Source: an uncultured bacterium (GTDB lineage: Bacteria; Omnitrophota; Gorgyraeia; Zapsychrales; Aceulaceae). From it: 64,000 bases of DNA. The notes beneath the pieces are model-generated. The model saw only the letters and a list, made by a program, of their open reading frames with translations. It did no database searches and was not told where the DNA came from. This document shows, piece by piece, positions 2,812 to 62,876 of the stretch. Positions within the stretch are counted from its first letter, which is position 1. The number at the start of each line of letters is the position of its first letter. The stretch is taken from contig CALGLP010000015.1 of the NCBI GenBank assembly GCA_937930175.1, forward strand, positions 68,174 to 132,173, in the 5' to 3' direction. The position numbers and the translations under genes are program-made.

Positions 2812-5800
2812 TTATTGGATGGCTAAACTGCACCCTGCGTTCACCTTAATGTGATATCCCTCGCCTGGCTTAAAATTCCCGATCTGATTAACCCAAGTGC
2901 CGTTGACCAACGAAATTGTATGATTATGTTGATCGATCACTTGAATTAATTGACCAGCATCAATAAGCGGTTGTAAAACTGTTATGGCCTCCTGCTCCTG
3001 TATTGCAGGGAATCCCATGATATTCCATCCTTGATTCAACAGCAATGTCTGAGGGTAGGCAAGTGCTGAGCCTGCGATATCTAAGCTTGCCGGCGTGCTC
3101 AACTTAATTTTATAGCCTTCGCTAGGGTTCATTTGACCAATAGTGTTGAGGTTATATGCTGGCCACAAGATTCCTCCATGATCATCCTGAACCATTTGCA
3201 CGATCCCCTGGCTGATCAATGGCTCTAAGATAGAGGCCATATTCGCATTCGCGGGCATGATGCTAAACGCCATGATATTCCAGCCGCTGTCCAACGCAAT
3301 ATATTGACTGGGGGTCATTGCAATCCCCACAAAATTCTGGATCTTATTTTCTTGAATATTCGTATACGTCATTTCTGGCGGCCCAAAGAGATACCAATAA
3401 GCATGCGGGGTCAAGGTGACATTGTCTCCGGCATTGACGATGAAGGTATGGGCCGGCCACTGAGAAACATCGACCGTAGTCACGGAACCATTGATATTAA
3501 CGTCAAGTGTTGCCCCCGGAATCAACTCGCCATAATTATCACTAATATCCGTATAGATATGATATGTCACAGGTGGTATAGTAAACGGCTCTCCGATGGT
3601 AAAGGTTGACCCAGCAAAACTTGTATCAACCGCCTGAACGCCCCAATAGTAAAGAGTGCCTGGAACAAGATCCTTCACCAAACAGCTGGTGGTGTCCGGC
3701 AAGACATTTCCCCGCTGAGGCCCAATTTGAGCGACCCTTCTAAAGCCACTGCCAAGATCAGACATGGGCGATACCCTATCAACAGAGCCTGGTGCAGTTC
3801 CGATGTAAATATTATACGAAAGTCCTTCTGATGGCGTTTGCCCATCCATGGATTTCTGCCAGCTCAAAGTCACGTTGTTAGACAAGGAGCTTGTTGTCAA
3901 ACTACAAGGAGCTGATGGAAGCGTGTTCGCGGAAATATTAGAAACATTGCGATAGATCCGCGTCAAACGCGTAAGACCAAAATCCATAAAGACTAAACCG
4001 CTCATCGCCAAATCCAGGCGTCCATCTTGATTAAAATCACCCCAAACAAACGCATAATCGTCTACGTCCTGTATAGGCAGGTCACAACCAATATCGACGA
4101 ACAAGCCGTTCTCTTGATTCCTGAAAATATACTGAGCCACTTCCAAATCAAGCCGTCCGTCATTATCAAAATCTCCCCAAGAAAGGCTTCCAACCTTGTC
4201 ACCACATTCCGTGTAAGCATAAAGCGTAAAGACACCTTCTCCGTTATTTTTATAGATATAGAGAGCGGTGCCAGACGATTGATAAGTTGTCGTTCCGCTC
4301 ATCGCCAAGTCCAGGAGACCGTCATTATTAAAATCTCCCACAGCAAAACTTCCCATCGAAACTCCTGTCAAGCCAGCGTTCATATCCGTAAAAGTACTAT
4401 CGCCATTATTACGATAAATCCTTGTTAGACGGCCTTCGGAAGGATTATTCCCGCTCATAACAATGTCCAGGTATCCGTCATTGTCAAAATCCCCTAACCC
4501 AAAAGAAGCCTGCCAAAGCACAGGAAAACTAACGTTCGCATCTGTAAACGTTCCATTCCCATTGTTAAGAAAGATGCGGACAGCGTCATCCGCTGAACTG
4601 CTAGACGATTTGACAAGCAGCGCGACATCTAAATATCCGTCATTATTAAAATCCCCTGCAGCGACCAAGCCTCCACCTGAGAAATCTTCTGTTCCAGGCA
4701 ATCCGGCCGCAATATCTGTAAAAGTTCCATCGGTATTATTTCGGAAAATAGCCGTTCCACTCTTTGGTGTTTGATTGGGATAATAAAACCGGATAACGAG
4801 ATCCAGCCATCCATCATTATTAAAATCCCCCCACACCAAACCATTCTCTATCGCCCCTGGCAAATCAGCTTCAATATCCGTAAAAGTGCCATCAGCATCA
4901 TTACGATAAACCTTGGTGAATCTTTCATCGTCTGAATTTTTACCGCTTACAGCCAGATCCAGAAAGCCATCATTATTAAAATCACCCCAAGCCAAAGAGC
5001 TCTGAGAAGCCCCTTCAAGCCCTGCGTCAATATTGACAAATGAAAACGTTTTGCTGACGGAAATCTGAAAAATGATCTGCACCTGATACCCTTGAGCTGT
5101 GTTCACGCTTAGCGCAAGGGGGATCGCTTCCCCGGGTTGAGCATCCGCAGACACCGTGATCTCAAAGATATCGGGTAAGATCGCAAAACCTACTGATCCC
5201 GTGGCAATAGCGCCATAATACGCCTGGCTTGCCAAGACGGAAACATGCGGGCTCTGCGAAGTCAAGACCGCGCTAACATCCGTCAGCGGATCAACGGAAA
5301 GCGAACTATTACGCAGCCCAAAATTGATCTTCACAGACTCTCCGGGATTGATCGCCCCATTATTATTCCCCCCAACACTATCATCAACGACAAAACTCTG
5401 AAAATGCAAGCTATAATATGGCGCCGGCTGTGACACAAGGGTCGCTAAGGCATTCACGCGGCCGTAGCCAAAATAAATATCTTTACCCGCCTCTCCAATA
5501 TCATCAACGCCCTGGCGTAAAATGCTGCGCAGCTCCAAATTGCTAAGCTCAGGCCGATGCGATAGCGCAAGCGCGGCAACGCCAGCGACATGCGGACAGG
5601 CCATAGATGTTCCACTCAGATAAAAATACTCTCCCCCCACAATACGGCTTGGGTAATTGATCGCGAAAAATGAATCTTCCGCCAACAGCGAAAGCACGCC
5701 AACTCCCGGCGCTGAAACTTCGATCTTGTCCCCATAATTCGAAAAAGATCCCTTTTGATCATCCGAATCTGTAGCGGCAACGGCAATGACACTTTCATAA

Positions 5801-7140
5801 CATGCTGGATAAGCGGGAATGACGCCAAGATCCCAATTGCTATTTCCCGACGAGGCGAGCACTAAGCAACCCATATTATAATAGGCATAATCAACAGCAT
5901 CTTTGATCATCTGAGAATAAACCGATCCTCCCCAGGAATTGCTTAAAATATCTGCACCCTTATTAGCCGCGTAGTATATAGAAGGCGCTAGGGTCTCATC
6001 GCTTCCTTTTCCACTATCCGAAAACCCCTTCACCGCCATGATCTTGGCCTCGGGCGCGACCCCAATAACACCGAGATTATTGTTGCCAACTGCCGCGATG
6101 GTCCCCGCGCAGTGCGTTCCATGACCATACCCGTCCATGGGATCATCATCATTGTAATAAAAATCATACCCATAATTTCCATTACTATCCTGCCACATGT
6201 TTCCCATAATATCCGAGTGGCTATAATCAACGCCTGTATCGATAACCGCGACAACAACCCCGCTGCCCCGCACCACATCCCAGGCCGGTTGAGCATTCAG
6301 TTTATCAAATTTAAGCGCGTAGAGATCATCGTAGGTCTGCCCCCATGATCCGCTGGTGTAAAAATAAGGGTCATTGGGATAAGAATTATTAACCGTATAA
6401 ACATAATTTGGCTCAGCATATTCGATGTTGGGATCAGATGACAAATCTTTCGCAAGCTCTTCCACAGGCTTGTCTGTGCGCACATTCTTGAAAATGTAGA
6501 CATTGGCAAAATCAAAGGCTTTTAGGTTTCGCGCTGGTATTGTTCTTTTTTGGGACAGCTGATCAAAAATGGCACTCGTGATATCGTCCTCTGATTCTTT
6601 CTGGCTTCGCATGGCTTCGTGCAACATTTTAAAAACCGGCTCAACCGTTGTTTCATCGCTAATCAAAGCGATCATCGAGGAAGGCAAGTCACCAGAAGAA
6701 CGCATGGCCATAGCTTTAAAACGAAAATCTTGTTGAGCCTGGCTAGCATTCTTGAATGATTCCGCAATCGTTAAGTTAATTTTAGCGGCTTGACCCAAGT
6801 CACCTTTGGCCTCAAGCATTTCCTTTTCTTTGGTTAACGATCCAAAGGTTTTAAACTTAACAACGATCTCTCCGGGAACATATCCGAGATCGCGCGCAGG
6901 ATCTGACGCCCCGCTAACGGACAGGACATCTTTGCTGCCGAATTCGAGAGAGGAAGGCAACTTATCCCATGCCTTGCCCGATGTTTTTTCCTGATCAACA
7001 AAAACAAACGCTTTCGAAGACTTACCGCTGAGCCCAAAAACTTTCTGGTTTCTGGCTGAGGCTGTTGCCAGAAAAAATAAGATCGTAAAGCTAAAAAATA
7101 CACCTACCATTAAACAACTACCCAGAAATTTATTTTTCAT
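2812..7140 (-). CDS. Secreted subtilisin-like serine peptidase (S8) with a seven-blade FG-GAP/integrin-alpha propeller and C-terminal β-domains
   Basis: S8 catalytic triad motifs are present: AVIDTGVDYSHSD (Asp), HGTHCAGTIAA (His) and GTSMACPHVAGVAALA (Ser). Seven repeats of (W/L/V/A)GDFNNDG(x)LD(L/I) follow. Signal peptide (MKNKFLGSCLMVGVFFSF). RBS AGGAGAAAA sits upstream of the ATG at 7140; the ORF-track start is TTG at 7176. Confidence 0.85.
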   Translation of the reverse strand: MKNKFLGSCLMVGVFFSFTILFFLATASARNQKVFGLSGKSSKAFVFVDQEKTSGKAWDKLPSSLEFGSKDVLSVSGASDPARDLGYVPGEIVVKFKTFGSLTKEKEMLEAKGDLGQAAKINLTIAESFKNASQAQQDFRFKAMAMRSSGDLPSSMIALISDETTVEPVFKMLHEAMRSQKESEDDITSAIFDQLSQKRTIPARNLKAFDFANVYIFKNVRTDKPVEELAKDLSSDPNIEYAEPNYVYTVNNSYPNDPYFYTSGSWGQTYDDLYALKFDKLNAQPAWDVVRGSGVVVAVIDTGVDYSHSDIMGNMWQDSNGNYGYDFYYNDDDPMDGYGHGTHCAGTIAAVGNNNLGVIGVAPEAKIMAVKGFSDSGKGSDETLAPSIYYAANKGADILSNSWGGSVYSQMIKDAVDYAYYNMGCLVLASSGNSNWDLGVIPAYPACYESVIAVAATDSDDQKGSFSNYGDKIEVSAPGVGVLSLLAEDSFFAINYPSRIVGGEYFYLSGTSMACPHVAGVAALALSHRPELSNLELRSILRQGVDDIGEAGKDIYFGYGRVNALATLVSQPAPYYSLHFQSFVVDDSVGGNNNGAINPGESVKINFGLRNSSLSVDPLTDVSAVLTSQSPHVSVLASQAYYGAIATGSVGFAILPDIFEITVSADAQPGEAIPLALSVNTAQGYQVQIIFQISVSKTFSFVNIDAGLEGASQSSLAWGDFNNDGFLDLAVSGKNSDDERFTKVYRNDADGTFTDIEADLPGAIENGLVWGDFNNDGWLDLVIRFYYPNQTPKSGTAIFRNNTDGTFTDIAAGLPGTEDFSGGGLVAAGDFNNDGYLDVALLVKSSSSSADDAVRIFLNNGNGTFTDANVSFPVLWQASFGLGDFDNDGYLDIVMSGNNPSEGRLTRIYRNNGDSTFTDMNAGLTGVSMGSFAVGDFNNDGLLDLAMSGTTTYQSSGTALYIYKNNGEGVFTLYAYTECGDKVGSLSWGDFDNDGRLDLEVAQYIFRNQENGLFVDIGCDLPIQDVDDYAFVWGDFNQDGRLDLAMSGLVFMDFGLTRLTRIYRNVSNISANTLPSAPCSLTTSSLSNNVTLSWQKSMDGQTPSEGLSYNIYIGTAPGSVDRVSPMSDLGSGFRRVAQIGPQRGNVLPDTTSCLVKDLVPGTLYYWGVQAVDTSFAGSTFTIGEPFTIPPVTYHIYTDISDNYGELIPGATLDVNINGSVTTVDVSQWPAHTFIVNAGDNVTLTPHAYWYLFGPPEMTYTNIQENKIQNFVGIAMTPSQYIALDSGWNIMAFSIMPANANMASILEPLISQGIVQMVQDDHGGILWPAYNLNTIGQMNPSEGYKIKLSTPASLDIAGSALAYPQTLLLNQGWNIMGFPAIQEQEAITVLQPLIDAGQLIQVIDQHNHTISLVNGTWVNQIGNFKPGEGYHIKVNAGCSLAIQ

Positions 7141-7256
7141 TTTTCTCCTATAGGAATAATTTTTATTAATCACCAAGTCCTCATTCCAGAATCTAAGATA
7201 ATAACAGCATCAAAGCGCGTCCATTGCTGGAGCAAGCCAACCACTCTTTAAAAAGA

Positions 7257-9218: not shown

Positions 9219-9869
9219 TTACAATTTATTAATAACAGCAAATACGATCCTGAGACCTAAAAAAATAAGAATTCCGCCAGAAACATATTGCACAATATGT
9301 TTCATTTTTTCGTTTCTCGATAGAACTTCCGTCACCTTTCCTGACACGGCAACCAAAATAGCCAAGGGCGACAAAACGGTTCCCAAACCAAAGACGAGTA
9401 AAAACATCATGGCGTCCAACGGGCTTTTGGCGATTAAGACAACATAGTTAAGCATTGCAAAAAGTGGCAGGCAAGGCGAAAGGCCGACCAAGAAGCCAGC
9501 AACTCCGACGTTGTGGATGTTTCCTTTGTTCAAGAAAGCGCATGTTTTTCCAAAAAAACTTTTTGCGCCCAAACATGTTGCGATCCCCAGCAAAACAATG
9601 AAGATGCCTAAGGCAAAATAAACACCTTGCGTATATCGTGAAATGGTTTCGCTTTGCAAGTAAGCAGCACCCAAGGCGCAAACAAAACCCCAAAACACAT
9701 AACTCACAAGCCTTCCCAAGGAAAAGACGCTATAGGAATAAAGCGACGGGCCAAATCCTTTCTTTTGGGCTGCTGTATAGATTATGAGAAACGGCGCGCA
9801 AAAGCTAAGACACGGGCCTGAGCCTAAGACAATTCCGCTTAAGAATAAATAAGATAGATTTTCAATCAT
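9219..9869 (-). CDS. CcdA/DsbD-like thiol-disulfide membrane transporter family protein (cytochrome c biogenesis transmembrane region type)
   Basis: About 6 TM helices with Cys pairs in TM1 (GSGPCLSFCAPF) and TM4 (GLSPCLPLF), resembling the SPCxxP motif of CcdA/DsbD_2 proteins. Confidence 0.4.
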   Translation of the reverse strand: MIENLSYLFLSGIVLGSGPCLSFCAPFLIIYTAAQKKGFGPSLYSYSVFSLGRLVSYVFWGFVCALGAAYLQSETISRYTQGVYFALGIFIVLLGIATCLGAKSFFGKTCAFLNKGNIHNVGVAGFLVGLSPCLPLFAMLNYVVLIAKSPLDAMMFLLVFGLGTVLSPLAILVAVSGKVTEVLSRNEKMKHIVQYVSGGILIFLGLRIVFAVINKL

Positions 9870-9979: not shown

Positions 9980-12088
9980 ATGATTATATTCATCCTTTTA
10001 GGTTTTGTCAGTTCTATTTTCCAATTAACACTCCTTCGGGAATTTACCTTCTCGATTGCCAAAAACGAGCTCTCGCTTATCATTGCGATCGGCATTTGGA
10101 TCACGAGCTCATCCCTGGCAAGCTTTGTACGGACCAAAAAATCGCTCATCTCCAATCTCGGACTCGCTGTACTCCTGAGCCTAGGCTTTGGCGCGTGCGT
10201 TTTTCTAGCGCACGGGATCAAAAGTCTTTTTGCCTTTACTTATTATGAAAGTGTCAGCGTTGTGTTTGCGTTGGGCGCCGGATTACTTGTCATGGCGCCC
10301 ATAGGATTTTTAACCGGCTATGCCTTTTCCCAATTTAACAGTGACGCTATCAGCAAAGAAGCCGACACAACAAATCACCTAAGTCACCCCTTTGCCTACG
10401 AAGCCCTTGGCATCTTGATTGGGGGCATTCTTTTCACTTTTATTTTGTCACGCTATGACAATCCTTTAACTTTTTGTAGCTTACCTCTTTTATTAATTCC
10501 AGTAATTACAGCCAACCCCAAACAAAAGTTATTAACCGCGGTCCTTCTCATGGCTTTATCCTTTTCCTTTAGCAATAACTACATACCTTTAATCAAGCAA
10601 GAATTCCAAAATGCCCGTATTGTTGCTCGCCAGGGCTCTGTCGCCGGCCCACTCCTTGCAACAGAAAAGAATAATGCACGCAGCCTTTTCTTAAATGGCG
10701 CACTTGTAGCCACCAGCGAAGACAAAGAAACCCAAGAAGCCTTCATTCACACCCTATTCTCAACCAAAGAAAAAATCAACACCGTGCTCTGGATTGGCCC
10801 ATGCTTTTCTTCACAGCTTAGAGAAATTGAAAAATACCAAATTGAGTCGATAACATGTGTTGATCTTAACCCACGGCCTAAAGATCTTCCTTCATTTTAT
10901 GCATCCTCGCAAAACGTTCATTTTCTTAATGAAGACCCTAGGCGCTTTCTTGAGAAAAATAAAAACACCTACGACCTGATTATCATGAATATCCCAGCAC
11001 CTTCAGCCCTAGGATTGAACCGCCTGTTCACTCTTGAATTCTTTAAGGCAATCAAAAACCGCTTATCCCCAGAAGGCATTTTTGCTTTTTCGATTCCCTC
11101 CAAAAGAGATATTTTAAGCCCTTCGATCCAAAGCTTTAACTCCTGCATCATCAATACCACAAGACAAGTTTTCGCAAACATCTTGATCATTCCATCGGAT
11201 ACCATGATGCTCATCGCCTCTTCACACCCCATTACAGCCCAAGACGTGATCAAAAACTTTGAGAACAACAATAGAAAGGCTCGCTTTTTTACTTCCTTCC
11301 ACCTCAAAGACTCCCTTGATAAAGAAAAACAAAATTATGTTTTGCACATGATCGACGCCTCAATCCCTATCAACACAGATCTCAGGCCCTACGGCTTTGT
11401 TTATTATTTGTTGCTTGAGCAAACCAAATTCTTTCCACACCTTTCCTCGTCCCTTCCGCTCAAACCATTTAAAAAATATATTCTCGTCGGATTTCTCTTT
11501 GCGCTGACAACGATTGGTTTCTTTTTTTATAAACAAAAAGGGGCTTCGCTAGCCTTAAATGCTGGCATCTTTGGCTTTCTCTCGATTGGCACGAGCGCCT
11601 TGATTTATTTTCTTTTTCAACTAATTTCGGGCACCTTATTTTGGAAATTGGGAATGATCGTTGGGCTTTTTATGGGCGGAGTTGGGTTGGGCGTCTTGCT
11701 CCCTGAAGTCATTTTAAAGAAAAAAGAAATAACTTCAAAACATCTTGGCTGGCTCTTTCTCTTGTGGTTTGGCCTTTGCCTAGAAATGTTTTGCTGGGCC
11801 AACCTTCGCTGGTCTGGATTGATAGGCGAAATGATCTGGGGCAGCTTATCTTTTGAGTGCGGGATCTTAACAGGCGCAGGATATACCTTCCTTAGTCGAC
11901 TCTGGCAAAAAGAAACAAATACTCAACCAACAAGCATCGCCCCCCTAATTTATGCCTCTGACCTTGCCGGGGCAGCCCTCGGGACATTTCTTTTTTCTCT
12001 CTTCTTTATTCCTTTTTTAGGAATCAATCTGTGTTTTCTTATTTTGATCAGCGTGGTCTTTGTTGCAGGACTAAAAACTTGTGCCTAA
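9980..12088 (+). CDS. Polytopic membrane protein with a spermidine-synthase-like (PABS-fold) domain that looks non-canonical
   Basis: N-terminal multi-TM region, then VLWIGPCFSS...VDLNPR...YDLIIMNIPAPSALGLNRLFTLEFFKAIKNRLSPEGIFAF. This parallels the SpeE core (GGGDGG...DVIIVDSSDP...LFTxEFY) but with the glycine motif and catalytic Asp positions substituted. Further TM helices follow at the C-terminus. Confidence 0.5.
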   Translation: MIIFILLGFVSSIFQLTLLREFTFSIAKNELSLIIAIGIWITSSSLASFVRTKKSLISNLGLAVLLSLGFGACVFLAHGIKSLFAFTYYESVSVVFALGAGLLVMAPIGFLTGYAFSQFNSDAISKEADTTNHLSHPFAYEALGILIGGILFTFILSRYDNPLTFCSLPLLLIPVITANPKQKLLTAVLLMALSFSFSNNYIPLIKQEFQNARIVARQGSVAGPLLATEKNNARSLFLNGALVATSEDKETQEAFIHTLFSTKEKINTVLWIGPCFSSQLREIEKYQIESITCVDLNPRPKDLPSFYASSQNVHFLNEDPRRFLEKNKNTYDLIIMNIPAPSALGLNRLFTLEFFKAIKNRLSPEGIFAFSIPSKRDILSPSIQSFNSCIINTTRQVFANILIIPSDTMMLIASSHPITAQDVIKNFENNNRKARFFTSFHLKDSLDKEKQNYVLHMIDASIPINTDLRPYGFVYYLLLEQTKFFPHLSSSLPLKPFKKYILVGFLFALTTIGFFFYKQKGASLALNAGIFGFLSIGTSALIYFLFQLISGTLFWKLGMIVGLFMGGVGLGVLLPEVILKKKEITSKHLGWLFLLWFGLCLEMFCWANLRWSGLIGEMIWGSLSFECGILTGAGYTFLSRLWQKETNTQPTSIAPLIYASDLAGAALGTFLFSLFFIPFLGINLCFLILISVVFVAGLKTCA

Positions 12089-14361
12089 TGCCAAATGCCA
12101 GGAACCAAGTGTTGACAGACAGGACAATGGCCATCGGTGATATGATTTTCTAAAACAGTGTAACCGACCCGCTTGATCAAGAGCTTACCGCACACAGGAC
12201 AAAAAATACTTTCCCCTTCTGTATCAGGAACATTGCCAATATAGACAAACTCAAGCCCTGCCTTTTTTGCAATTGTATAGGCGCGTTTTAACGTTGCCAC
12301 AGGTGTCGGCGATAAATCAACAAGTTTATACATTGGATAAAAACGGGAAAAATGAATAGGCGTCTGCGCCCCCAAATTATCCTTAACCCACAAGCAAAGA
12401 TTAGCGATCATTTCATCGCTATCATTGGCACCGGGAATAAGGAGATTGGTAATCTCAACCCAAACACCTTCTTCTTTTAAAATCTTCAATGTATTTAACA
12501 CTGTTTCTAGGTGACCACCTGTCAAGCTTGTATAAAACTTTTCATCAAAACCTTTCAGATCGATATTCGCGGCTAAAAGATACTGGGAAAGCTCGCGCAA
12601 AGGAGCATCGTTGATAAATCCAGCCGAATGCATGACACACGCAACACCTTCCTGACGGGCCACTCTAGCGATATCCAGCATATATTCATAAAAAATCGTG
12701 GGCTCGGTATACGTAAAAGCAATCGTTTTTGCGCCTGCGGCTTTGGCTCTGACCACAATGTCTTGCGGTGTAACATACTCGCCATTCACCTCGTCCGCGT
12801 CAAGTTGAGAGATCTCCCAATTCTGACAAAATTTGCATCGCAGATTACATCCAGCTGTGGCCAGAGAAAATGATTTTGTGCCAGGAAAAACATGAGCAAA
12901 AGGTTTCTTTTCAATAGGATCCACGTGCAGCGCCACAGGCTGGCCATAGGTCAAAGCGTAAAGCTTCCCGTTGATATTTTTACGTGCGCGGCAAAAACCA
13001 AATTCCTTTTTGTTGATCACGCAACGATGTGGACAAAGCTCACATTGCACCAAACCATTGGCTAATGATTTGAAAAAACTAGCCAGGTGAAAAGAGACTT
13101 CGGTGCTCACCGCGTGCGCCGATGCCTGCCCTTCGCTTGCAGGCTTGGCTTTTGCCAAAACAAACACGCTGGTAAAGATCAGAACAATCACAACAATAGC
13201 AATCTGCAGCTTGCTTGCCTTGCCGCCTTTGCTTAGAAAGCTTTCAAGTATTGTTCCCGTAGGGCAAATAAATTGACACCAAAACCGAGGAGAAAATACC
13301 GAAACAAATAAAAAAAGAATAAATATTCCAAGCGTCACCCAAGGAACATGGGTCATGGTGAAAGCAAAAAAGGGCTCAAAGAAATGAAGCCTAACCCCCA
13401 CTCCGCCAAGGATCAGCCCAACAATAACAAAAAGATAGCCAACCTTAAGCCAGCGCAAAGCCTGAGCCTGGCAAGAAGTAACAACAATTTTCTTCTTTTG
13501 CAATTGCCCCAGGATTTCTTGAAAAGATCCGTAGGGACAAACATGCGTACAATAAAAATTTTTATTTCGCCATAATGCCATAACTACCGTGATAACAAAA
13601 ATCCAAAACGTTATATCACGCCAAGGAATGCCCTGAGAAATCCATCCGTCCAACAGCGACAGCGTAAGCATTTGGGCTGTCAAAAATCCGAGAATCATCA
13701 CATTGCTGATCAAGAGAACAAGACGCCAGGACCTCGGAGTACTCGTGCGAAAAAAGGTCAACAAGGAAAACATCAAGGCCGCAAGGGCTAAAAGATATTT
13801 CCAAGAAAAAACCAAGCCTGGCGCCGACAAAGAAGCAAAAGCATCATCCCTTGAAAGCAAAGCAAGGCGCTTTTGGAAAGCGTTGATAATCGCTTGTGTT
13901 GTGCGCGTCGCGCCGGTGACAGCGTCCACTTTTTTACCTAACGCTTGCGTAACATCAAGTCCATTCCACGATGCAAAAAACTTCTTTCCCTCTAAAAAAT
14001 CAACAACATCCGGGGTCTCATGATGATCGGCCAAAGACACCCCCACAATGCGCCCATCAAGGCTTGCGCCGATGCCAAGATGGACAGCTCCCCCATAGCC
14101 TTGTTCTTGCACAAAGGGATTTGTAAAAATAATTCTCCCTAAGGAGTTTTTTTCTGCATCAAAAACTATAGACCAGCCTTGCTCGTTTACGCAAGGCTGA
14201 AAAGACGCCGCTTGTGGAAAAATCCTTTGAACCGGAGGAAGCAGATGCGCAGAATCATCTGAAGACGCTTTGGATAAAGGTAAAACCGCTTGCTGATGAG
14301 AAATAAAAATAAGCGCGACAACAATAAAAAAAATACCCAAAGATAAAAACCTTTTATGCAT
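12085..14361 (-). CDS. Fusion protein: a periplasmic FMN-binding domain (NosR/NqrC/RnfG-type) and a NapH/NosR-like CX3CP membrane domain joined to a PflA-like (AmmeMemoRadiSam-type) radical SAM domain
   Basis: DAVTGATRTT matches the flavinylation motif D-x-x-(S/T)-G-A-T. Two TM-embedded CX3CP motifs are present (CTHVCPYG, CQFICPTG). The radical-SAM cluster motif CNLRCKFC (CX3CX2C) follows. N-terminal CELCPHRC and C-terminal CPVCG...CPVCQH cysteine pairs are typical of AmmeMemoRadiSam/PflA-like activases. AGGAG RBS upstream of the ATG at 14361. Confidence 0.65.
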   Translation of the reverse strand: MHKRFLSLGIFFIVVALIFISHQQAVLPLSKASSDDSAHLLPPVQRIFPQAASFQPCVNEQGWSIVFDAEKNSLGRIIFTNPFVQEQGYGGAVHLGIGASLDGRIVGVSLADHHETPDVVDFLEGKKFFASWNGLDVTQALGKKVDAVTGATRTTQAIINAFQKRLALLSRDDAFASLSAPGLVFSWKYLLALAALMFSLLTFFRTSTPRSWRLVLLISNVMILGFLTAQMLTLSLLDGWISQGIPWRDITFWIFVITVVMALWRNKNFYCTHVCPYGSFQEILGQLQKKKIVVTSCQAQALRWLKVGYLFVIVGLILGGVGVRLHFFEPFFAFTMTHVPWVTLGIFILFLFVSVFSPRFWCQFICPTGTILESFLSKGGKASKLQIAIVVIVLIFTSVFVLAKAKPASEGQASAHAVSTEVSFHLASFFKSLANGLVQCELCPHRCVINKKEFGFCRARKNINGKLYALTYGQPVALHVDPIEKKPFAHVFPGTKSFSLATAGCNLRCKFCQNWEISQLDADEVNGEYVTPQDIVVRAKAAGAKTIAFTYTEPTIFYEYMLDIARVARQEGVACVMHSAGFINDAPLRELSQYLLAANIDLKGFDEKFYTSLTGGHLETVLNTLKILKEEGVWVEITNLLIPGANDSDEMIANLCLWVKDNLGAQTPIHFSRFYPMYKLVDLSPTPVATLKRAYTIAKKAGLEFVYIGNVPDTEGESIFCPVCGKLLIKRVGYTVLENHITDGHCPVCQHLVPGIWH

Positions 14362-14394: not shown

Positions 14395-15900
14395 CTATCT
14401 GGAAGCCTTGCGTTTAGCAAATAAGGAAAACCCGAAATATGCTGCCAAGGCAAACCCATAATAAACCAAAACCACAACAAAAGGAACTTGAGGCAGTTTA
14501 AAATAAGCACCCGGAATAGCCACAAGAAGATAATTGATCTTAAAAAAGAGGAGGATCAAAAACTCATTACTAGCCCCTAAGATCGGCGCCAGACAAGGAA
14601 ACGGGATGCCGATGAGCGCCAAGCTTAATCCTGCAATGATCATCACCGTCGCCAAAGGAACAACAAACATGTTGGCCAAGACAGCAATCGGTGTGATGAT
14701 CTTAAAATAATAAGCGATCAAAGGCAAGAGCCCTACCCAAGCCGCTAAAGACACGGAAAAGGTAAGAATAAAAAAGTAAACCCACCCGATCACCCTCCAT
14801 TTCTGTGGAAAAAAAGATTCAATCTTAGGCGTAAGCCAAGCAATAAAAACAATGCTTAAAAAAGAAAGCTGAAAACTAATCCCAAAAAGCTGACACGGAT
14901 TAACAACAAGGATGCTGATGGCTGCCAAGGCTAGCGAATTATAAATATGGACTTCCCGCTCGAAAATATAGCCCAAAAGCAAAATAATCGCCATAATCGT
15001 GGCACGAACAACCGGCGCGTTAGAACCTGTCAAAAGACAATGAAGGATCAACAATGCGATTGCGAGAACGTAACGTGGACGTCGTGGAATTCTCATCACC
15101 TTAAGAACAAGCAAGATAATAAAAGCCACGATGCCCACATTAAAACCTGAAATCGCAATAATATGAACAACGCCTAAATTCACCATCACATCCATAACGT
15201 AATCAGGCAAATCTTGCCGATCCCCTAAAATAAAAGCATTCATAACCCCTGCACAAAAAGAAGACATGTTCCGTGCGATAACATGGCGTATTTTGTGTTT
15301 GATACGAAATGAGAAAGCCTTCAGGGGATTGCCGACTTCTTGCGCTAATCGCTTAAAAATACTTCCCTTTTTAATGCTTAAGATCGAATAAATCCCCTGA
15401 CGCGCTAAATATCTCCTGTAATCAAAATCTTTAGAAAACGAAAAGGGGCGATACACCTTGCCGACAAAAAGAAAACGGTCGCCGTAGACAAATGTCCCTT
15501 TAGCAAAAACCTTGGTCAGGACTTTGCCACACGTCGGTTTCCACACACCATTCACCTTGAGCTTCTCTGCCCTCAAAATAAAAGACGTATTTCTTTGCTG
15601 ATTGGCCGGATCGCTATCGATCACGCCGATCAGGAATACAGAATCCTCCTTAAACGGAATGCGCTTAGCGATATGATGACTAGGCAGGATTTGGGCGTTG
15701 CGTAATAAGGCCGCACCCAAGAAAAAGGCTGCAACAAGAAATACAATTCTAAAAAGAAAAAAGTGTCGGATGAGCAAGAGGCTTACGAACAAACATAAAA
15801 GTGCTGAGGAAGAAAAAAGAAGAAAAGAGGCCTGAAAAGATTCAGCCGCAAATATTCCTAAACAGAAACTTAGACAGATGCTAACAAATGGATACGTCAT
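14395..15900 (-). CDS. comEC: ComEC/Rec2 family competence channel protein, without a metallo-β-lactamase domain
   Basis: Polytopic membrane protein with a DUF4131-like N-terminus (DFDYRRYLARQGIY) and a competence domain (HIIAISGFNVGIVAF...LLLGYI). Directly downstream of comEA. Confidence 0.75.
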   Translation of the reverse strand: MTYPFVSICLSFCLGIFAAESFQASFLLFSSSALLCLFVSLLLIRHFFLFRIVFLVAAFFLGAALLRNAQILPSHHIAKRIPFKEDSVFLIGVIDSDPANQQRNTSFILRAEKLKVNGVWKPTCGKVLTKVFAKGTFVYGDRFLFVGKVYRPFSFSKDFDYRRYLARQGIYSILSIKKGSIFKRLAQEVGNPLKAFSFRIKHKIRHVIARNMSSFCAGVMNAFILGDRQDLPDYVMDVMVNLGVVHIIAISGFNVGIVAFIILLVLKVMRIPRRPRYVLAIALLILHCLLTGSNAPVVRATIMAIILLLGYIFEREVHIYNSLALAAISILVVNPCQLFGISFQLSFLSIVFIAWLTPKIESFFPQKWRVIGWVYFFILTFSVSLAAWVGLLPLIAYYFKIITPIAVLANMFVVPLATVMIIAGLSLALIGIPFPCLAPILGASNEFLILLFFKINYLLVAIPGAYFKLPQVPFVVVLVYYGFALAAYFGFSLFAKRKASR

Positions 15901-16243
15901 CAAGGCACAACAGTTAAGTATTTTTCAATGATGTCAAATTTAAACTTTCCAACTCCCTTGATATAACGGATATCACTTAGATCCTTCAACCTTCCCTTTT
16001 CTTCTCTCAAGCGAAGGATGCTCTGAGCTGTTTTATCGCCGACATAAGGAATGCCGACCAAATCTTCAAGGGTTGCTTTGTTCACATCAATCTTAAGATG
16101 CCCAGGAACTTCACTGCCTGCGCTGTTAAGAAATTTCTTTGTCGCAAAATTTGTTTTCAAAAGATAATTGGACAAAATACCAAGCAAAAGAACAGCGCCC
16201 AAACATACAAAAGCTAAGCGTTCTTCTTTCGTCAGCGATAACA
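15900..16243 (-). CDS. comEA: ComEA helix-hairpin-helix DNA-binding competence protein
   Basis: N-terminal TM anchor, then an HhH region: IDVNKATLEDLVGIPYVGDKTAQSIL...IKGVGKFKF. ATG at 16243; the ORF-track start at 16298 is TTG. Confidence 0.7.
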
Positions 16244-16317
16244 TAGATGTAAAATCTCTAAGGTTAAGGTAATTCGACTTCTTCAACAAAAAAGCCAACG
16301 CTTTAAAAAATCTTTTG

Positions 16318-24888: not shown

Positions 24889-25347
24889 TTACATCTTTCG
24901 GCTTAAAACCACCTCCGGCTCTTCATCCAAAACTTTATTCACGGTCATGGTCATATAATTGCTATCGGTCTTGTAATAATCCATGCCACGCTCAATGTAT
25001 TGATCGTCAATCTTTACAGGAGCAAAGAACTTGCGACACATATCGCGCGCCACATCAGAATTAAAAGCTTTACAACAATAAACATCAACAGAAATATAAT
25101 TCTTAGGTGTGAGCGTGTGGATCACTATAGAGCTTTCAATCAAAGGAGCCCAGCCAGAAAGTCCGGCCTTATCAGGAAAACGAGTCGCATCACTTCGAAA
25201 GATACTCGGCGGAGATTGCTTCTCCATGCCCAATTTCTCAACAATCTCATCTAGAAATTGATAACACAACGAAAGGTCATCGCAAGCACCCTCCTTGCAT
25301 CCATAGAGATCTAAAAGTAGCTGATATCCAAAAACTTGGTTCGTCAT
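24889..25347 (-). CDS. speD: S-adenosylmethionine decarboxylase proenzyme (pyruvoyl-dependent, SpeH type)
   Basis: LLLDLYGC...GLSGWAPLIESSIVIHTLTPKNYISVDVYCC. The ES|S processing site and surrounding pattern fit small bacterial/archaeal AdoMetDC. Confidence 0.75.
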   Translation of the reverse strand: MTNQVFGYQLLLDLYGCKEGACDDLSLCYQFLDEIVEKLGMEKQSPPSIFRSDATRFPDKAGLSGWAPLIESSIVIHTLTPKNYISVDVYCCKAFNSDVARDMCRKFFAPVKIDDQYIERGMDYYKTDSNYMTMTVNKVLDEEPEVVLSRKM

Positions 25348-52335: not shown

Positions 52336-53517
52336 TTAGGCCGGGTCGTAATGAACAAACTCTTTGCCAGCATAATTCTTAAGGACATAGGAGCCGTCTT
52401 GCTGTGTGACCACAACATTGGGCTCAATGGGGATCTTCCCACCGCCACCCGGGGCGTCCACAACAAAGGTAGGGACCGCATAGCCAGAGGTATGTCCACG
52501 GAGCTTCTCGATGATATTGAGGCCCACGGATAAGGGCGTTCGAAAATGCGCTGACCCCACGATCGGATCACACTGATAAATATAATAGGGACGAACACGT
52601 ATTTTCAAAAGATCATGCATGAGCTTCTTCATAATATACGGCTTGTCGTTAATGCCTTTAAGCAAAACCGTCTGGCTTCCCATCAAGATCCCATTATCCG
52701 CCAAAAGCTCACAGGCAAAACGCACGCGTTTGGTGATTTCTTTAGGATGGTTAAAATGAATGCTCATCCAGATCGGGCTGTATTTTTTGAGCATATTCAC
52801 AAGATCGGTTGTGATGCGCTGCGGCAAGGTCACAGGAACGCGCGTGCCAATACGCACCATTTCCACATGCGGGATGGCTTTGAGATTCTTAATAATATCC
52901 TCTAAGACATCATCGCCTAGGATCAAGGGATCCCCGCCGGAGATCAAGACATCACGAATTTTTTTATTCGAACGAATATATTCATACGCAGCTTCATATT
53001 GCGAGGTTTTTGGCTTGGATCGTCCTTTGCCAAAAATACGCGACCGCGTGCAATGACGACAATACATCGCGCACATTTCACTCACCAAAAATAACACACG
53101 ATCCGGATAACGATGCACAAGCCCATGGACCGGGGACATCGAATCTTCCCCGCACGGATCTTCCAATTCATGATCCGAACGCAAAAGCTCGCTTTCCAAC
53201 GGAACACATTGACGGCGGATAGGACACGCCGGGTCTTCAGGATCGATCAAACTTGCGAAATACGGCGGAATCGCCATATTAAGCTTTTCACCGCAACGAT
53301 CAATACCGCGAGTTTCTTCTTCGGTCAGGCTAATGATCTGCGATAAGGCTTCCTTGGTCTCAATACGATTGCGAAGTTGCCAGGTCCAATCTTCCCAGTC
53401 AAGCGGCGTAGCATTTTCAAAGAAATTAATAAAACGATTTTCTTTTGAAGAAAGATTAGGCTTGATAACAATCGTTTTTTCTTGAGCCTGTCCGGCAACT
53501 TGTTCCATGGGATTCAT
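52336..53517 (-). CDS. KamA-family radical SAM aminomutase (lysine 2,3-aminomutase-like)
   Basis: CAMYCRHCTR (CX3CX2C) in the KamA context. PLP-binding region and C-terminal CDPIVGSAHFR, characteristic of lysine/glutamate 2,3-aminomutases. Confidence 0.8.
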   Translation of the reverse strand: MNPMEQVAGQAQEKTIVIKPNLSSKENRFINFFENATPLDWEDWTWQLRNRIETKEALSQIISLTEEETRGIDRCGEKLNMAIPPYFASLIDPEDPACPIRRQCVPLESELLRSDHELEDPCGEDSMSPVHGLVHRYPDRVLFLVSEMCAMYCRHCTRSRIFGKGRSKPKTSQYEAAYEYIRSNKKIRDVLISGGDPLILGDDVLEDIIKNLKAIPHVEMVRIGTRVPVTLPQRITTDLVNMLKKYSPIWMSIHFNHPKEITKRVRFACELLADNGILMGSQTVLLKGINDKPYIMKKLMHDLLKIRVRPYYIYQCDPIVGSAHFRTPLSVGLNIIEKLRGHTSGYAVPTFVVDAPGGGGKIPIEPNVVVTQQDGSYVLKNYAGKEFVHYDPA

Positions 53518-53518
53518 T

Positions 53519-54528
53519 TTAGACTTCTACCTCATGTGTTTTTAAATGTAATCTTGCCAAGCCCTCGTCTAAGGCTCGCAACACCATCTCTTCAAAAGGC
53601 CGTCCCAGCGCTTGCGCCACATGAAAGAAGGTATCTTTTTTGGACAAATTGGGCAAGGGATTGATCTCAAGAACAAAAGGCCGTCCCTTTTCATCCACAC
53701 GAAAATCGACCCTGCCAAAATCACGACACCCGACTGACAGATAGGTCTGCACGGCAAGATCCTGAAGCTTTTTGGTTAACCCAACAGGAATTTGCGCAGG
53801 GCAAAGATATTTTACGCTCTCTTCTTTGACATGTTCAAAAGTATAAAACTCATTTCCTAAATCAACACGATTGCCAATCGCATACTGGATCACCGGCATG
53901 GCGTCAGGTTCCTCGTTGCCAAAAACAACCACGGTAAACTCGCTGCCCTTAATAAATTCTTCAACCAAAGCTGGCTGATGATACTGCCCGACCACCAAAT
54001 CAACTTGACGCGCGAGCCCTTCATAATCTTCCACGCGCGAGAATTTGCTAATTCCTTTGGACGTCCCTTCGTAACAAGGCTTGACCATCAGCGGAAATCC
54101 CACGCTGTTACACTCTTCCAGATGTTCAGACGAGGTCGTTGTAAAATATTTAGGCGTTGGAATCCCATCAGCCACAAAACATTTCTTCGCCATTAATTTG
54201 TCTAGCGTAATCCCAAGCGTCAAGGCATCGGAACCAATAAACGGAATCCCATGCATTTCTAAAAGCAGTGGCACCTGCGACTCGCGATTACGGCCAGAAC
54301 GCCCTTCGGCAATATTAAACACAACGTCCACGCCAAGCTTGTGGATCTTGGATAAGAGCTGATGCGCGTTGCCGATGAGCTTGACCTCATGCCCTGCCGA
54401 CTCAAAGATCTTTTTGAGATCTCCGACGGTCTCCTTGGAATCAAGCTCCGCGTTGGCATCCAAAGGATCGCCAGCTAAAAGCGGCCGCTCTTCTTTTAAA
54501 TCGTAGGTTAATCCAATGATAAGTCCCA
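53519..54528 (-). CDS. ATP-grasp ligase of the D-Ala-D-Ala ligase family
   Basis: Ddl-like N-domain, central ATP-grasp (GFPLMVKPCYEGTSKGIS) and C-terminal FRVD...VLEINPLPNL. Its stop lies 1 nt from the kamA-like start. Confidence 0.7.
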
Positions 54529-54861
54529 TAGGCAAAAAATAAAGGACTATAGATCCCCTCTATAGTCCTTTGTCCTTTTCATGTTCTCTGTATGGCTCCG
54601 TTAAAAAAATGTTACAAGATTGATTGAATACGCTTATGAATTTCATTTTTTTATTATTTTTACTATATTTTTTTTAACACACATAAAATCCCATGTCAAT
54701 CATTTTTAAATAGAATGTCATGATAACAAATCAAAAGAATATACCAATAGATATTCTTTTTTTCAAGAAGGTTTTTTTCAACGCGTTGCCTCGCATGAAA
54801 TGTTACCATGTCCGCTGAGATTGTCTTTCTTTGGCAACAGTCTTGAAGAATCACCCAGGGC

Positions 54862-62667: not shown

Positions 62668-62876
62668 TTCGCTATCCTCCTTTTTGTTCCTTGGCCTCCC
62701 CCATCCACTATGGAGCGGGAAACGCAAGGAAAATCAAATCCATACTAAAAGTATGGCATACGAGGGGAGAATTTCAAGGGGATAGGGGGTTTTTGGGGAA
62801 AGCGCTTTCATCGACGAGAAAGTCAAAATAGATGAAAAAATAGGAAATAATTAGGCCGGGAAATGGCTAAACAACA

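Follow-up and report, generated by a model that had tools for sequence, protein, structure and literature searches.

Does the Omnitrophota gene described here join a flavin domain, an iron-sulfur membrane module and a radical-SAM (rSAM) enzyme in one polypeptide, and on which side of the membrane would that enzyme be supplied with electrons? The window, i.e., the whole stretch of DNA analyzed, comprises 64 kb, and the locus includes the following features:

12085..14361, minus strand: fusion gene, 758 aa, seven transmembrane segments (TM) (ORF, Pfam/NCBIfam matches, three assemblies, ten homologues)
14290..14349, minus strand: TM1, aa 5-24, N-in signal anchor after MHKR (hydropathy 2.9)
13867..14100, minus strand: FMN_bind domain, aa 88-165, predicted outside the cytoplasmic membrane (PF04205, 46.8 bits; between TM1 and TM2)
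13897..13926, minus strand: flavinylation motif DAVTGATRTT, aa 146-155 (translation; consensus [S/T]G[A/S]TX[S/T], PMC5928378)
13255..13806, minus strand: NapH/RdhC-like core, TM2-TM6 (aa 186-358) plus two CX3CP motifs (two Fer4_5 matches)
13534..13551, minus strand: CX3CP motif 1, CTHVCP, aa 271-276, cytoplasmic face after TM4 (translation)
13261..13278, minus strand: CX3CP motif 2, CQFICP, aa 362-367, cytoplasmic face after TM6 (translation)
13150..13209, minus strand: TM7, aa 385-404, LQIAIVVIVLIFTSVFVLAK (hydropathy 3.2; in every homologue)
13081..13149, minus strand: variable linker from TM7 to the rSAM domain, aa 405-427 (poorly conserved and of varying length in the alignment; pLDDT <50)
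12088..13080, minus strand: AmmeMemoRadiSam-family rSAM domain, aa 428-758 (TIGR04337, 381.5 bits; 63% identical to the L089 enzyme)
12826..12849, minus strand: rSAM cluster motif CNLRCKFC, aa 505-512, invariant (translation)
9980..12088, plus strand: SpeE-like partner, 702-aa polytopic protein with a central Spermine_synth-fold domain (PF01564, 42.3 bits)
9219..9869, minus strand: DsbD_2/CcdA-like 6-TM thiol-disulfide membrane protein (PF13386, 70.5 bits)

The fusion gene is a single unbroken reading frame whose product comprises an FMN_bind domain, a NapH/RdhC-type membrane core with two CX3CP motifs, TM7 and a TIGR04337 rSAM domain. Pfam matches include (i) FMN_bind at aa 88-165 (46.8 bits), (ii) two copies of Fer4_5 (46.3 bits), and (iii) Radical_SAM at aa 502-655 (80.5 bits), and the NCBIfam model TIGR04337 covers aa 428-757 (381.5 bits, cut-off 220). 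The profiles reproduce the three-part composition, family assignments and domain order of the original prediction, with every motif that it quoted in place. GC content is level along the whole gene, junction included, and an identical copy of the protein occurs in three independent assemblies (NCBI GCA_036722365.1, ENA ERZ724084 and Logan ERR7850083). The same fusion, whose presence in related genomes had been raised, is found in about 12 homologues at 46-71% identity, ten of which, aligned at full length, keep the domain order and every motif residue without interruption down to 46% identity. The claimed rarity also holds: in a set of 1.84 billion representatives, only two clusters at 50% identity carry the full fusion. 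The gene is confirmed as a real single gene joining flavin domain, Fe-S membrane module and rSAM enzyme; one related genome (L079) displays a split arrangement, the rSAM part being a separate ORF without a signal.

The AF2 model of the fusion protein (pLDDT 59) is too poor for use. The alignment of ten homologues discloses invariant residues in each part, comprising D146, A151 and T152 of the flavinylation motif, C271, C275 and P276 of the first CX3CP motif, C362, C366 and P367 of the second, and EPF in the TM5-TM6 outer loop of the core. Thr152 is predicted to be the phosphoester-FMN site; the annotated genes of the window include no ApbE gene, which counts against the reading favored below. 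The rSAM domain is bounded by an N-terminal CxxCxxxC...C and two C-terminal CPxC motifs, seen in the translation as CELCPHRC at aa 440-447 and CPVC at aa 721 and aa 746, and all 11 of its motif cysteines are invariant. Its core is PFL-AE-like, the nearest solved structure being 3c8f (PFL-AE, E = 1e-7); the protein stays below the glycyl-radical activase family cut-offs (57 versus 232 bits).

Hydropathy highlights seven, not six, strongly hydrophobic segments, the same seven in every full-length homologue; the original prediction had missed aa 385-404. This segment, TM7, separates the second CX3CP motif from the rSAM domain and is the most hydrophobic of all. The sidedness calls rely on hydropathy, charge bias and purpose-written motif scans. 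Two to four K/R precede TM1 in every homologue, and in all homologues the loops TM2-3, TM4-5 and TM6-7 are K/R-rich (the last with 4-8 K/R in the full-length proteins) and the loops TM3-4 and TM5-6 K/R-poor, a positive-inside pattern that is RdhC-like through TM6. Since RdhC/PceC displays six TMs, with the FMN domain experimentally outside and the C-terminus inside (PMC5928378), one added TM would bring the C-terminal rSAM domain outside, to the same side as the FMN domain. In the alignment, TM7 falls on the h-region of Sec-type signal peptides, among them those of L089, L055 and L058, and is predicted to be the counterpart of the stand-alone relatives' signal peptide, returning the chain across the membrane. 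Sequence evidence from the fusion protein and hundreds of relatives thus leads to the prediction that the rSAM domain resides outside the cytoplasm, beside the FMN domain. The positive-inside call is weaker for TM7 alone because 2-4 K/R immediately trail it in the homologues. The motif scan found no twin-arginine motif before TM7 in any Omnitrophota fusion, which, together with its very hydrophobic character, suggests that the rSAM domain would be threaded unfolded by Sec.

No route is known by which a Sec-threaded domain would acquire three Cys-ligated metal sites, a point that counts against an outward location.

The signal survey covered 82 rSAM ORFs from 80 species-level genomes in more than 15 phyla and disclosed RRxFL Tat signals (50), KR variants (8), Sec signals or anchors (17) and no signal (5). 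The TIGR04337 model begins only past the 42-56-aa N-terminal extension of these relatives, and P0043 attains the TIGR01409 (TAT_signal_seq) cut-off. A neighbor-joining tree built from 155 rSAM domains nests the fusion clade in a group of about 50 members, nearly all of them extended at the N-terminus by a Tat, Sec or TM segment; this group is separate from the extension-less and AMMECR1/Memo-fused forms. The closest stand-alone relative, L089, is 63% identical to aa 414-758, its signal peptide aligning on TM7. The signal-less exceptions L054 and L090 count against the exported reading, and P0020, with a single N-terminal TM and more K after than before it, against the outward one. As judged from these predicted signals, the exported branch is widespread, its rSAM enzyme carrying a Tat or Sec signal; no description of it, and no report of an rSAM enzyme outside the cytoplasm, was found in the literature searched. 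The cytoplasmic rSAM domain of the original prediction is not supported, since the conserved TM7, its signal-peptide homology, and the Tat/Sec signals carried by relatives and partners all point to the outer side. The soluble, cytoplasmic rSAM partner that it ascribed to the known system is true of one family branch only.

Independent fusions in the same rSAM clade involve only FMN_bind, only DsbD_2, or DsbD_2, FMN_bind and NapH together. P0025 and P0026 comprise a signal anchor, FMN_bind and rSAM, with no TM separating the last two; P0024 passes from DsbD_2 (N-out, C-out) directly into rSAM; and P0019 runs from DsbD_2 into FMN_bind (no TM between), then five TMs, one further TM, preceded only by an RK pair, and rSAM. 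By their predicted topology, these proteins obey the same parity as the 7-TM protein, and they support the earlier proposal that the membrane redox module feeds the rSAM domain.

The CcdA/DsbD-like gene noted nearby proves a real partner. DsbD_2 is fused to rSAM in P0019, P0024 and P0031, neighbors 10 of 14 Sec/anchor-type loci versus 4 of 60 Tat-type loci (p = 1e-6), and keeps its position in L001-L005, L089 and L094; the window's protein displays cysteines in TM1 (GPCLSFC) and TM4 (SPCLP). DUF362 neighbors, many with RR signals, accompany 21 of 60 Tat-type versus 0 of 14 Sec-type loci (p = 0.007). The SpeE-like gene, convergent with the fusion gene and overlapping it at the stop codons, adjoins the fusion in L001-L005 and, across many phyla, an exported-type rSAM gene in 39 of 80 loci; in 31 homologues, its soluble domain is predicted to lie outside. 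The ~500-aa neighbors of relatives are TIGR04336+TIGR04335 (B+A) Memo-AMMECR1 fusions with Sec or lipoprotein signals; in L092, the one locus whose rSAM lacks a signal, B+A lacks one as well. The absence of AMMECR1/Memo genes, as first stated, holds for the 64-kb window (tblastn; Pfam of called genes) but is local only: L089 and L094 display a B+A/DsbD_2/SpeE-like/rSAM cluster in the window's gene order, with the secreted Memo-AMMECR1 fusion directly after DsbD_2. No reductive dehalogenase or NosZ gene was found near the fusion. As a whole, the first interpretation is partly supported.

On balance, and with confidence only a little above even, we favor a hard-wired transmembrane electron supply, from Fe-S through covalent FMN to rSAM, for an extracytoplasmic rSAM enzyme. 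The chain would start inside, cross at TM1 and place FMN_bind outside, with FMN covalently bound to Thr152 by an ApbE-type transferase; a five-helix RdhC/NosR/NapH-type core would follow, its cytoplasmic-face CX3CP pair presumably holding an iron-sulfur center, and then TM7, with the TIGR04337 domain outside on a flexible tether beside the FMN domain. The CX3CP center would receive electrons from the quinol pool or from a donor in the cytoplasm; these would cross the membrane to the covalent FMN, which would take flavodoxin's role in cytoplasmic rSAM enzymes, and would then arrive at the auxiliary and radical-SAM [4Fe-4S] clusters. The fusion would be a hard-wired version of the exported AmmeMemoRadiSam branch, in which the rSAM enzyme carries a Tat/Sec signal, Memo-AMMECR1 a Sec/lipoprotein signal, and a ~700-aa membrane protein is predicted to present its SpeE-like domain outward; reducing power appears to be provided by DUF362 in Tat-type loci and DsbD_2 in Sec-type loci. 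In the Omnitrophota lineage, the signal peptide may have become TM7 of a complete electron conduit, with the SpeE-like and DsbD_2 partners retained.

We know of no rSAM enzyme shown to work outside the cytoplasm; all characterized ones are, as far as we know, cytoplasmic, as are the machineries for SAM synthesis and Fe-S assembly, which counts against the outward reading. A possible but doubtful alternative keeps the FMN periplasmic and the rSAM domain cytoplasmic, electrons arriving from the periplasm or quinol via the CX3CP center, with either TM7 not spanning the membrane or another segment doing so, and TM7 serving only as an extra anchor. The K/R right after TM7, the lack of RR before it and the signal-less ORF of L079 are consistent with this arrangement, which would set the rSAM domain next to CX3CP motifs that are cytoplasmic in NapH/RdhC (PMC5928378). 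It needs no extra helix, yet TM7 is present in all ~12 members as their most hydrophobic segment and corresponds by positional homology to the signal peptides found on the nearest stand-alone enzymes; moreover, Tat and Sec signals dominate the clade, the partner B+A proteins are secreted, and P0025/P0026 join FMN_bind to rSAM with no membrane segment between.

Covalent FMN of NqrC/RnfG-type domains is, to our knowledge, not known at flavodoxin-like low potentials, in line with an improbable reading of the fusion as membrane tether or co-regulation only, the FMN/NapH part serving another extracytoplasmic partner and rSAM being reduced by another route, e.g., via DsbD_2, retained next door, or a soluble carrier. 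NosR and RdhC modules do serve extracytoplasmic redox partners, and flavinylated NapH-like modules pair with many oxidoreductases (PMC8238504). Against a mere anchor, the clade is repeatedly and independently fused to three different electron-transfer modules and its stand-alone forms associate with DUF362 or DsbD_2, which together favor a functional redox link; the fusion neighborhood has no further candidate oxidoreductase that is conserved.

Artificial joining of two genes near 13.1-13.3 kb, one RdhC-like and one rSAM, through a frameshift, a sequencing error or a chimeric assembly, a concern of the original prediction to which the split L079 arrangement lends some color, is rejected as exceedingly improbable by the continuous ORF, the even composition across the junction, the three assemblies and the ten uninterrupted homologues.

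Compared to known systems, the C-terminal 331 aa resemble the AmmeMemoRadiSam rSAM enzyme (TIGR04337, 381.5 bits versus cut-off 220), sharing the CX3CX2C motif, four motif cysteines at the N-terminus and a double CxxC at the C-terminus, and the closest stand-alone relatives are clustered with the B+A fusion of its two partner proteins, Memo (protein B, TIGR04336) and AMMECR1 (protein A, TIGR04335). No paper on the function of that system was found in the literature searched. Here, in contrast, the enzyme forms the C-terminal domain, predicted outward, of a 7-TM protein, with no A or B gene within 64 kb. Flavodoxin, an FMN protein, gives one electron to the [4Fe-4S] cluster of cytoplasmic rSAM enzymes such as pyruvate formate-lyase activase, and an FMN protein would do the same here; its carrier, however, is a NqrC/RnfG-type covalent-FMN domain with no flavodoxin fold, which belongs to the enzyme's own polypeptide and is predicted to work on the outer side of the membrane. 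In the Streptomyces Rieske protein, Sec inserts the earlier helices and Tat places the last helix and cofactor domain outside. Tat-integrated tail-anchored Fe-S proteins exist (PMC10924467), and such proteins share with the fusion a membrane core, a final helix, an Fe-S domain on the outer face (predicted for the fusion) and positive charges after the last helix, but the fusion lacks RR before TM7, which is strongly rather than moderately hydrophobic. RdhC/PceC and NosR (PMC5928378; 'NapH-like systems', PMC8238504) display the same order of N-terminal anchor, extracytoplasmic FMN_bind with [S/T]GAT, five further TMs and two CX3CP motifs, although the fusion protein falls far under the NosR (38 versus 1000 bits) and NapH (33 versus 213 bits) cut-offs. 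A TM7-equivalent helix is absent from RdhC, NosR and NapH: RdhC ends past the sixth TM and NosR runs on into a cytoplasmic polyferredoxin, whereas the fusion protein continues into a seventh TM and an rSAM domain.

The minus-strand ORF at 12085..14361 is unbroken over 758 codons, with an even base composition throughout, and encodes a protein in which Pfam detects FMN_bind (PF04205, aa 88-165, 46.8 bits), two copies of Fer4_5 (46.3 bits) and Radical_SAM (aa 502-655, 80.5 bits). In NCBIfam, aa 428-757 score 381.5 bits against TIGR04337, the AmmeMemoRadiSam radical-SAM enzyme (cut-off 220), covering model positions 2-333 of 349. These matches bear out the three-part composition of the original prediction, and every motif that it quoted is found in its place. 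The flavinylation motif TGATRT (aa 149-154) fits the consensus [S/T]G[A/S]TX[S/T] defined in PMC5928378, the FMN_bind domain being placed between TM1 and TM2. The radical-SAM domain (rSAM) comprises (i) the CX3CX2C motif C505/509/512, (ii) an N-terminal cluster C440/443/447/457, and (iii) a C-terminal paired CxxC C721/724/746/749. The architecture is common to ten full-length homologues (46-71% identity, some labelled Candidatus Omnitrophota), whose alignment shows no variation at Thr152, in either CX3CP motif, in an EPF motif or at any of the eleven rSAM cysteines.

Hydropathy analysis discloses seven strong hydrophobic segments in the fusion protein, not six. The last of them, TM7 (aa 385-404, LQIAIVVIVLIFTSVFVLAK), exceeds the other six in hydrophobicity, is found in all homologues, and is connected to rSAM by a variable linker of 20-45 residues. 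Every homologue has many K/R residues in the loops TM2-3, TM4-5 and TM6-7 and few in TM3-4 and TM5-6, and hydropathy combined with this bias counts six spans (TM2-TM7) between the FMN domain and rSAM in all full-length homologues. FMN_bind and NapH proteins without rSAM (P0015 and P0016) stop right after the second CX3CP motif. In PceC, six helices are predicted and the FMN domain is located outside by cell-surface shaving (PMC5928378), so that the C-terminus of the RdhC/PceC-type module would be cytoplasmic; with TM7 added, the parity of spans would set rSAM on the side of the FMN domain, that is, outside. Judging by hydropathy, by charge bias and by motif scans made for this analysis, we lean towards an rSAM domain located outside the cytoplasmic membrane, with its transmembrane electron supply on the same polypeptide.

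The original prediction had placed rSAM in the cytoplasm. The need of radical-SAM enzymes for SAM, a low-potential reductant and Fe-S assembly is the reason for regarding them as strictly cytoplasmic. Both SAM and the assembly of Fe-S clusters belong to the cytoplasm, and no radical-SAM enzyme is known to have been demonstrated at work elsewhere. Moreover, two to four K/R residues directly follow TM7, so the positive-inside call for this helix is not clean. For a cytoplasmic rSAM the additional helix would be needless, and the conserved TM7, by parity, and the export signals on relatives point to the domain being outside; we therefore consider the cytoplasmic location unlikely, albeit the most serious of the alternatives. 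Tat-dependent insertion of TM7 was also considered and is rejected for the Omnitrophota fusions, since neither the window protein nor its homologues in Omnitrophota have a twin-arginine motif ahead of TM7.

An exhaustive search finds N-terminal extensions on many of the closest rSAM relatives; among 155 rSAM domains, 25 display an RR Tat motif, five a KR/RK variant, and 23 a TM or signal-like segment. When the 155 domains are placed in a neighbour-joining tree, the fusion clade is nested in a group of about 50 members, nearly all with an N-terminal extension, set apart from the extension-less forms and from forms with a C-terminal AMMECR1 and Memo fusion. A species-level scan, taking one genome per species, yields 80 loci with 82 rSAM ORFs from more than 15 bacterial phyla, including Planctomycetota, Acidobacteriota/Aminicenantes, Calditrichota, Zixibacteria, Latescibacterota, KSB1, Thermodesulfobacteriota, Bacteroidota, Omnitrophota, Elusimicrobiota, Lentisphaerota, Nitrospirota, Chloroflexota, and others.

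N-terminal signals of the rSAM ORFs in the species-level scan
50/82: RRxFL-type Tat motif, then a hydrophobic stretch
8/82: KR variant
17/82: Sec-type signal peptide or anchor, mostly Omnitrophota
5/82: no extension
2/82: other extension, no recognisable signal

The extended relatives score 305-382 bits with TIGR04337, above its cut-off, and the match begins only past residue 37-57, and TIGR01409 (TAT_signal_seq) reaches its cut-off on protein P0043. The closest stand-alone enzyme, from the Omnitrophota locus L089 (365 aa, 63% identity to window aa 414-758), carries a signal peptide, MKIPIRLTFPIILFLVIYSFHAFS, that aligns exactly on TM7, suggesting that TM7 is the descendant or functional counterpart of an export signal.

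Several loci depart from these patterns. At L063:2208-3418 the signal anchor of rSAM lies in a separate frame, owing to a frameshift in the MAG, and the ORF is counted among the five extension-less ones. L054:3663-4637 and L090:7983-8990 are exceptions to the export pattern, encoding rSAM without a detectable signal although the adjoining fusion of Memo (protein B) and AMMECR1 (protein A), hereafter B+A, has one. The Omnitrophota locus L079:6473-8966 shows the architecture of the window protein interrupted: a 441-aa ORF comprising FMN_bind, NapH and TM7 and ending in AKYWKSSM is followed by an AT-rich gap of about 200 nt and a signal-less 322-aa rSAM ORF beginning MIECHLCP. The FMN motif at this locus is THAT instead of [ST]GAT, and the gene has either been split or is a copy in decay; like that of L063, its rSAM ORF belongs to the five extension-less ones.

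The rSAM clade also occurs in independent fusions. P0024 and P0031 comprise a DsbD_2 domain followed directly by rSAM; the six TMs of P0024 predict both termini outside, and the scan found only five in P0031. In P0019, DsbD_2 precedes FMN_bind with no helix between them, followed by five helices with two CX3CP motifs, one helix, and rSAM. P0025 and P0026 display a signal anchor, FMN_bind and rSAM, and the lack of a helix separating the last two domains argues that they act on one side of the membrane. The fusions in P0024, P0019, P0025 and P0026 are thus predicted to keep the parity of the window protein. In two further proteins, P0022 (919 aa) and P0030 (681 aa), rSAM follows a signal peptide plus either a beta-propeller (Reg_prop/PorZ-like) or a CBM_11 carbohydrate-binding domain, which hints at a cell-envelope or polysaccharide-linked substrate.

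In the window, the fusion gene lies on the minus strand next to the following genes, listed with others of the stretch.

Window genes other than the fusion gene
9980..12088, plus strand: 702-aa polytopic membrane protein with a Spermine_synth-fold domain (SpeE-like), convergent with the fusion gene
9219..9869, minus strand: DsbD_2
14395-16298, minus strand: comEA (HHH_3) and comEC (DUF4131 and Competence), immediately upstream of the fusion gene and co-directional with it, 33-nt gap
24889-25347, minus strand: S-adenosylmethionine decarboxylase (AdoMet_dc), about 10 kb from the SpeE-like gene, neighbours a CxxCxxCC protein, a TMP-TENI protein and GidA
52336-54535, minus strand: second radical-SAM gene, lysine-2,3-aminomutase type (Radical_SAM and LAM_C, 393 aa), paired with an ATP-grasp gene (D-Ala-D-Ala-ligase-like)
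2812-7176, minus strand: very large ORF, 1454 aa, Peptidase_S8 and FG-GAP repeats
58132-62727, minus strand: very large ORF, 1531 aa

The order fusion gene, SpeE-like gene, DsbD_2 is kept in homologues down to 54% identity. The convergent stop codons overlap (fusion TAG 12085-12087 on the minus strand, SpeE-like TAA 12086-12088), and the same 4-nt gene-end overlap recurs in L001, L004 and L005, loci of other fusion carriers; these three also keep the comEA/comEC arrangement, so co-transcription with the fusion gene is possible. A SpeE-like gene adjoins the exported-type rSAM in 39 of the 80 loci, across phyla, and the closest stand-alone relatives, L089 and L094, carry a four-gene cluster B+A / DsbD_2 / SpeE-like / rSAM, ordered as in the window. 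DsbD_2 and DUF362 neighbours are distributed unequally between the loci with Tat-type and Sec/anchor-type rSAM.

Neighbours of rSAM by type of export signal
DsbD_2: 4/60 Tat-type versus 10/14 Sec/anchor-type loci, Fisher p = 1e-6
DUF362: 21/60 Tat-type versus 0/14 Sec/anchor-type loci, Fisher p = 0.007

DUF362 lies directly upstream of rSAM in L017-L034, L037, L042, L043, L049 and L057, many of these proteins bearing RR Tat signals of their own. Two small proteins without Pfam matches beside rSAM in L010 and L013 were considered as DsbD_2-like and rejected, one being pentapeptide-repeat-like and the other an unrelated secreted protein. Across 31 SpeE-like homologues, the far-side short loops of the two flanking helices are K/R-rich (3.0 versus 1.4 K/R, 24:3; 3.8 versus 1.0, 30:1), from which the soluble domain is predicted to face outward. 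The SpeE-like protein (window 9980-12088, plus strand; also L010, L012 and the 31 homologues) would be a second SAM-type (SAM/dcSAM-binding) fold on an unexpected side of the membrane.

The genes of about 500 aa adjoining exported-type rSAM are fusions of TIGR04336 (Memo, B) and TIGR04335 (AMMECR1, A), nearly all with a Sec or lipoprotein signal peptide at the N-terminus; at L092, where rSAM is signal-less, B+A likewise lacks a signal. AMMECR1 and Memo lie beside rSAM in L089 and L094. The absence of both genes near the fusion, remarked on in the original prediction, holds throughout the 64-kb window (tblastn with P0014 domains; Pfam of called genes) and within 10 kb of the fusion gene in L001-L005. 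Some Omnitrophota (L095-L097) encode B+A elsewhere in the genome, so a copy in trans is possible for fusion carriers. Two homologues of the L089 B+A, P0298 and P0378, were rejected as the organism's own, as they belong to other samples.

The best-supported reading, built on predicted topology, is a protein that by itself would supply electrons across the membrane to its own outward-facing radical-SAM enzyme. Electrons from a donor at the cytoplasmic face, or from quinol, would pass (i) to a CX3CP-bound iron-sulfur centre, (ii) to the covalent FMN on the outer FMN_bind domain, and (iii) to the auxiliary and catalytic clusters of rSAM, with the FMN domain in the role of flavodoxin. A possible role of DsbD_2 is to hold the eleven ligand cysteines in the reduced state outside, and this could account for its association with Sec/anchor-type members. 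Enzymes exported by Tat could travel folded, with clusters and perhaps SAM already bound; for the Sec-type members and the TM7-tethered domain, we know of no route to their clusters. The membrane part might instead act as a tether, without direct electron transfer to rSAM. An AF2 model of the full protein on a ten-sequence alignment (mean pLDDT 59, pTM 0.39, with pLDDT under 50 in the linker and the N-terminal part of rSAM) is too poor to inform on domain packing, and a PDB sequence search matches only PFL-activase and RnfG, finding no solved NapH-like core or TIGR04337 member. Given the repeated independent fusions of the rSAM clade to electron-transfer modules (FMN_bind alone, DsbD_2 alone, or both with NapH), we judge a mere tether improbable. 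An artefact of frameshift or chimeric assembly, named in the original prediction as a possible refutation, is ruled out by the continuous ORF, the ten homologues, and the identical protein on contigs of three independent assemblies (GCA_036722365.1, NCBI; ERZ724084, ENA; ERR7850083, Logan). Genuine and conserved, the fusion protein is also rare: among 1.84 billion cluster representatives searched exhaustively with HMMER, only two 50%-identity clusters, P0005 and P0017, contain the complete fusion.

At the level of the system, we give an even chance to an exported AmmeMemoRadiSam branch in more than 15 bacterial phyla, comprising a Tat- or Sec-targeted rSAM, a secreted Memo-AMMECR1 and an outward SpeE-like protein, powered across the membrane by interchangeable DUF362, DsbD_2 or FMN_bind/NapH modules and performing radical-SAM chemistry outside the cytoplasm, with the window protein uniting conduit and enzyme in one polypeptide. 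If confirmed, this would be a new kind of location for radical-SAM chemistry: the window protein and its Tat/Sec-targeted relatives would be the first periplasmic radical-SAM enzymes, the flavinylated NapH-type conduit would solve the reductant problem as a stand-in for flavodoxin, and new questions would arise as to how SAM reaches the outside and how the clusters are put in place there, implying new routes for SAM to the periplasm and for Fe-S clusters in Sec-type members. The widely conserved AMMECR1/Memo/radical-SAM system, whose human homologues are AMMECR1 and MEMO1, would gain a predicted cellular location, new and putatively obligate partners (membrane SpeE-like, DsbD_2 and DUF362) and a handle for experiments. 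In the literature searched, no paper was found on exported, Tat-targeted or periplasmic radical-SAM enzymes, nor on AmmeMemoRadiSam function or TIGR04337 biochemistry; radical SAM is unmentioned in the main text of either of two flavinylation surveys (PMC8238504 and another). Public annotation labels these proteins 'AmmeMemoRadiSam system radical SAM enzyme' or 'pyruvate formate lyase activating enzyme'.

The constituent parts of the fusion protein belong to known families. The glycyl-radical activase PflA shares a related fold only (3c8f, E = 1e-7), its model TIGR02493 scoring 57 bits against a cut-off of 231.75. As regards Tat-exported proteins, the RR motif is absent ahead of TM7 in the window protein but present in 50 of 82 related stand-alone enzymes. 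The protein scores 38 bits against the NosR model NF046105 (cut-off 1000), 33 bits against the NapH model TIGR02163 (cut-off 213), and far below the cut-off of the RnfG model in NCBIfam; ApbE (PF02424) was not found among the called genes of the window. Up to TM6 the protein matches the RdhC/PceC/NosR type, with an N-terminal anchor, an FMN domain and five further helices, the two CX3CP motifs following TM4 and TM6; a seventh TM is added, whereas the CX2CX2CX3CP ferredoxin domain, the cytoplasmic polyferredoxin of NosR and NapH, is replaced by the radical-SAM domain. The flavinylated NapH-like module is described as a modular conduit for extracytosolic oxidoreductases (PMC8238504); what is new here is its proposed acceptor, by which the catalogue of extracytosolic flavinylated electron transfer would be extended to a new acceptor class.
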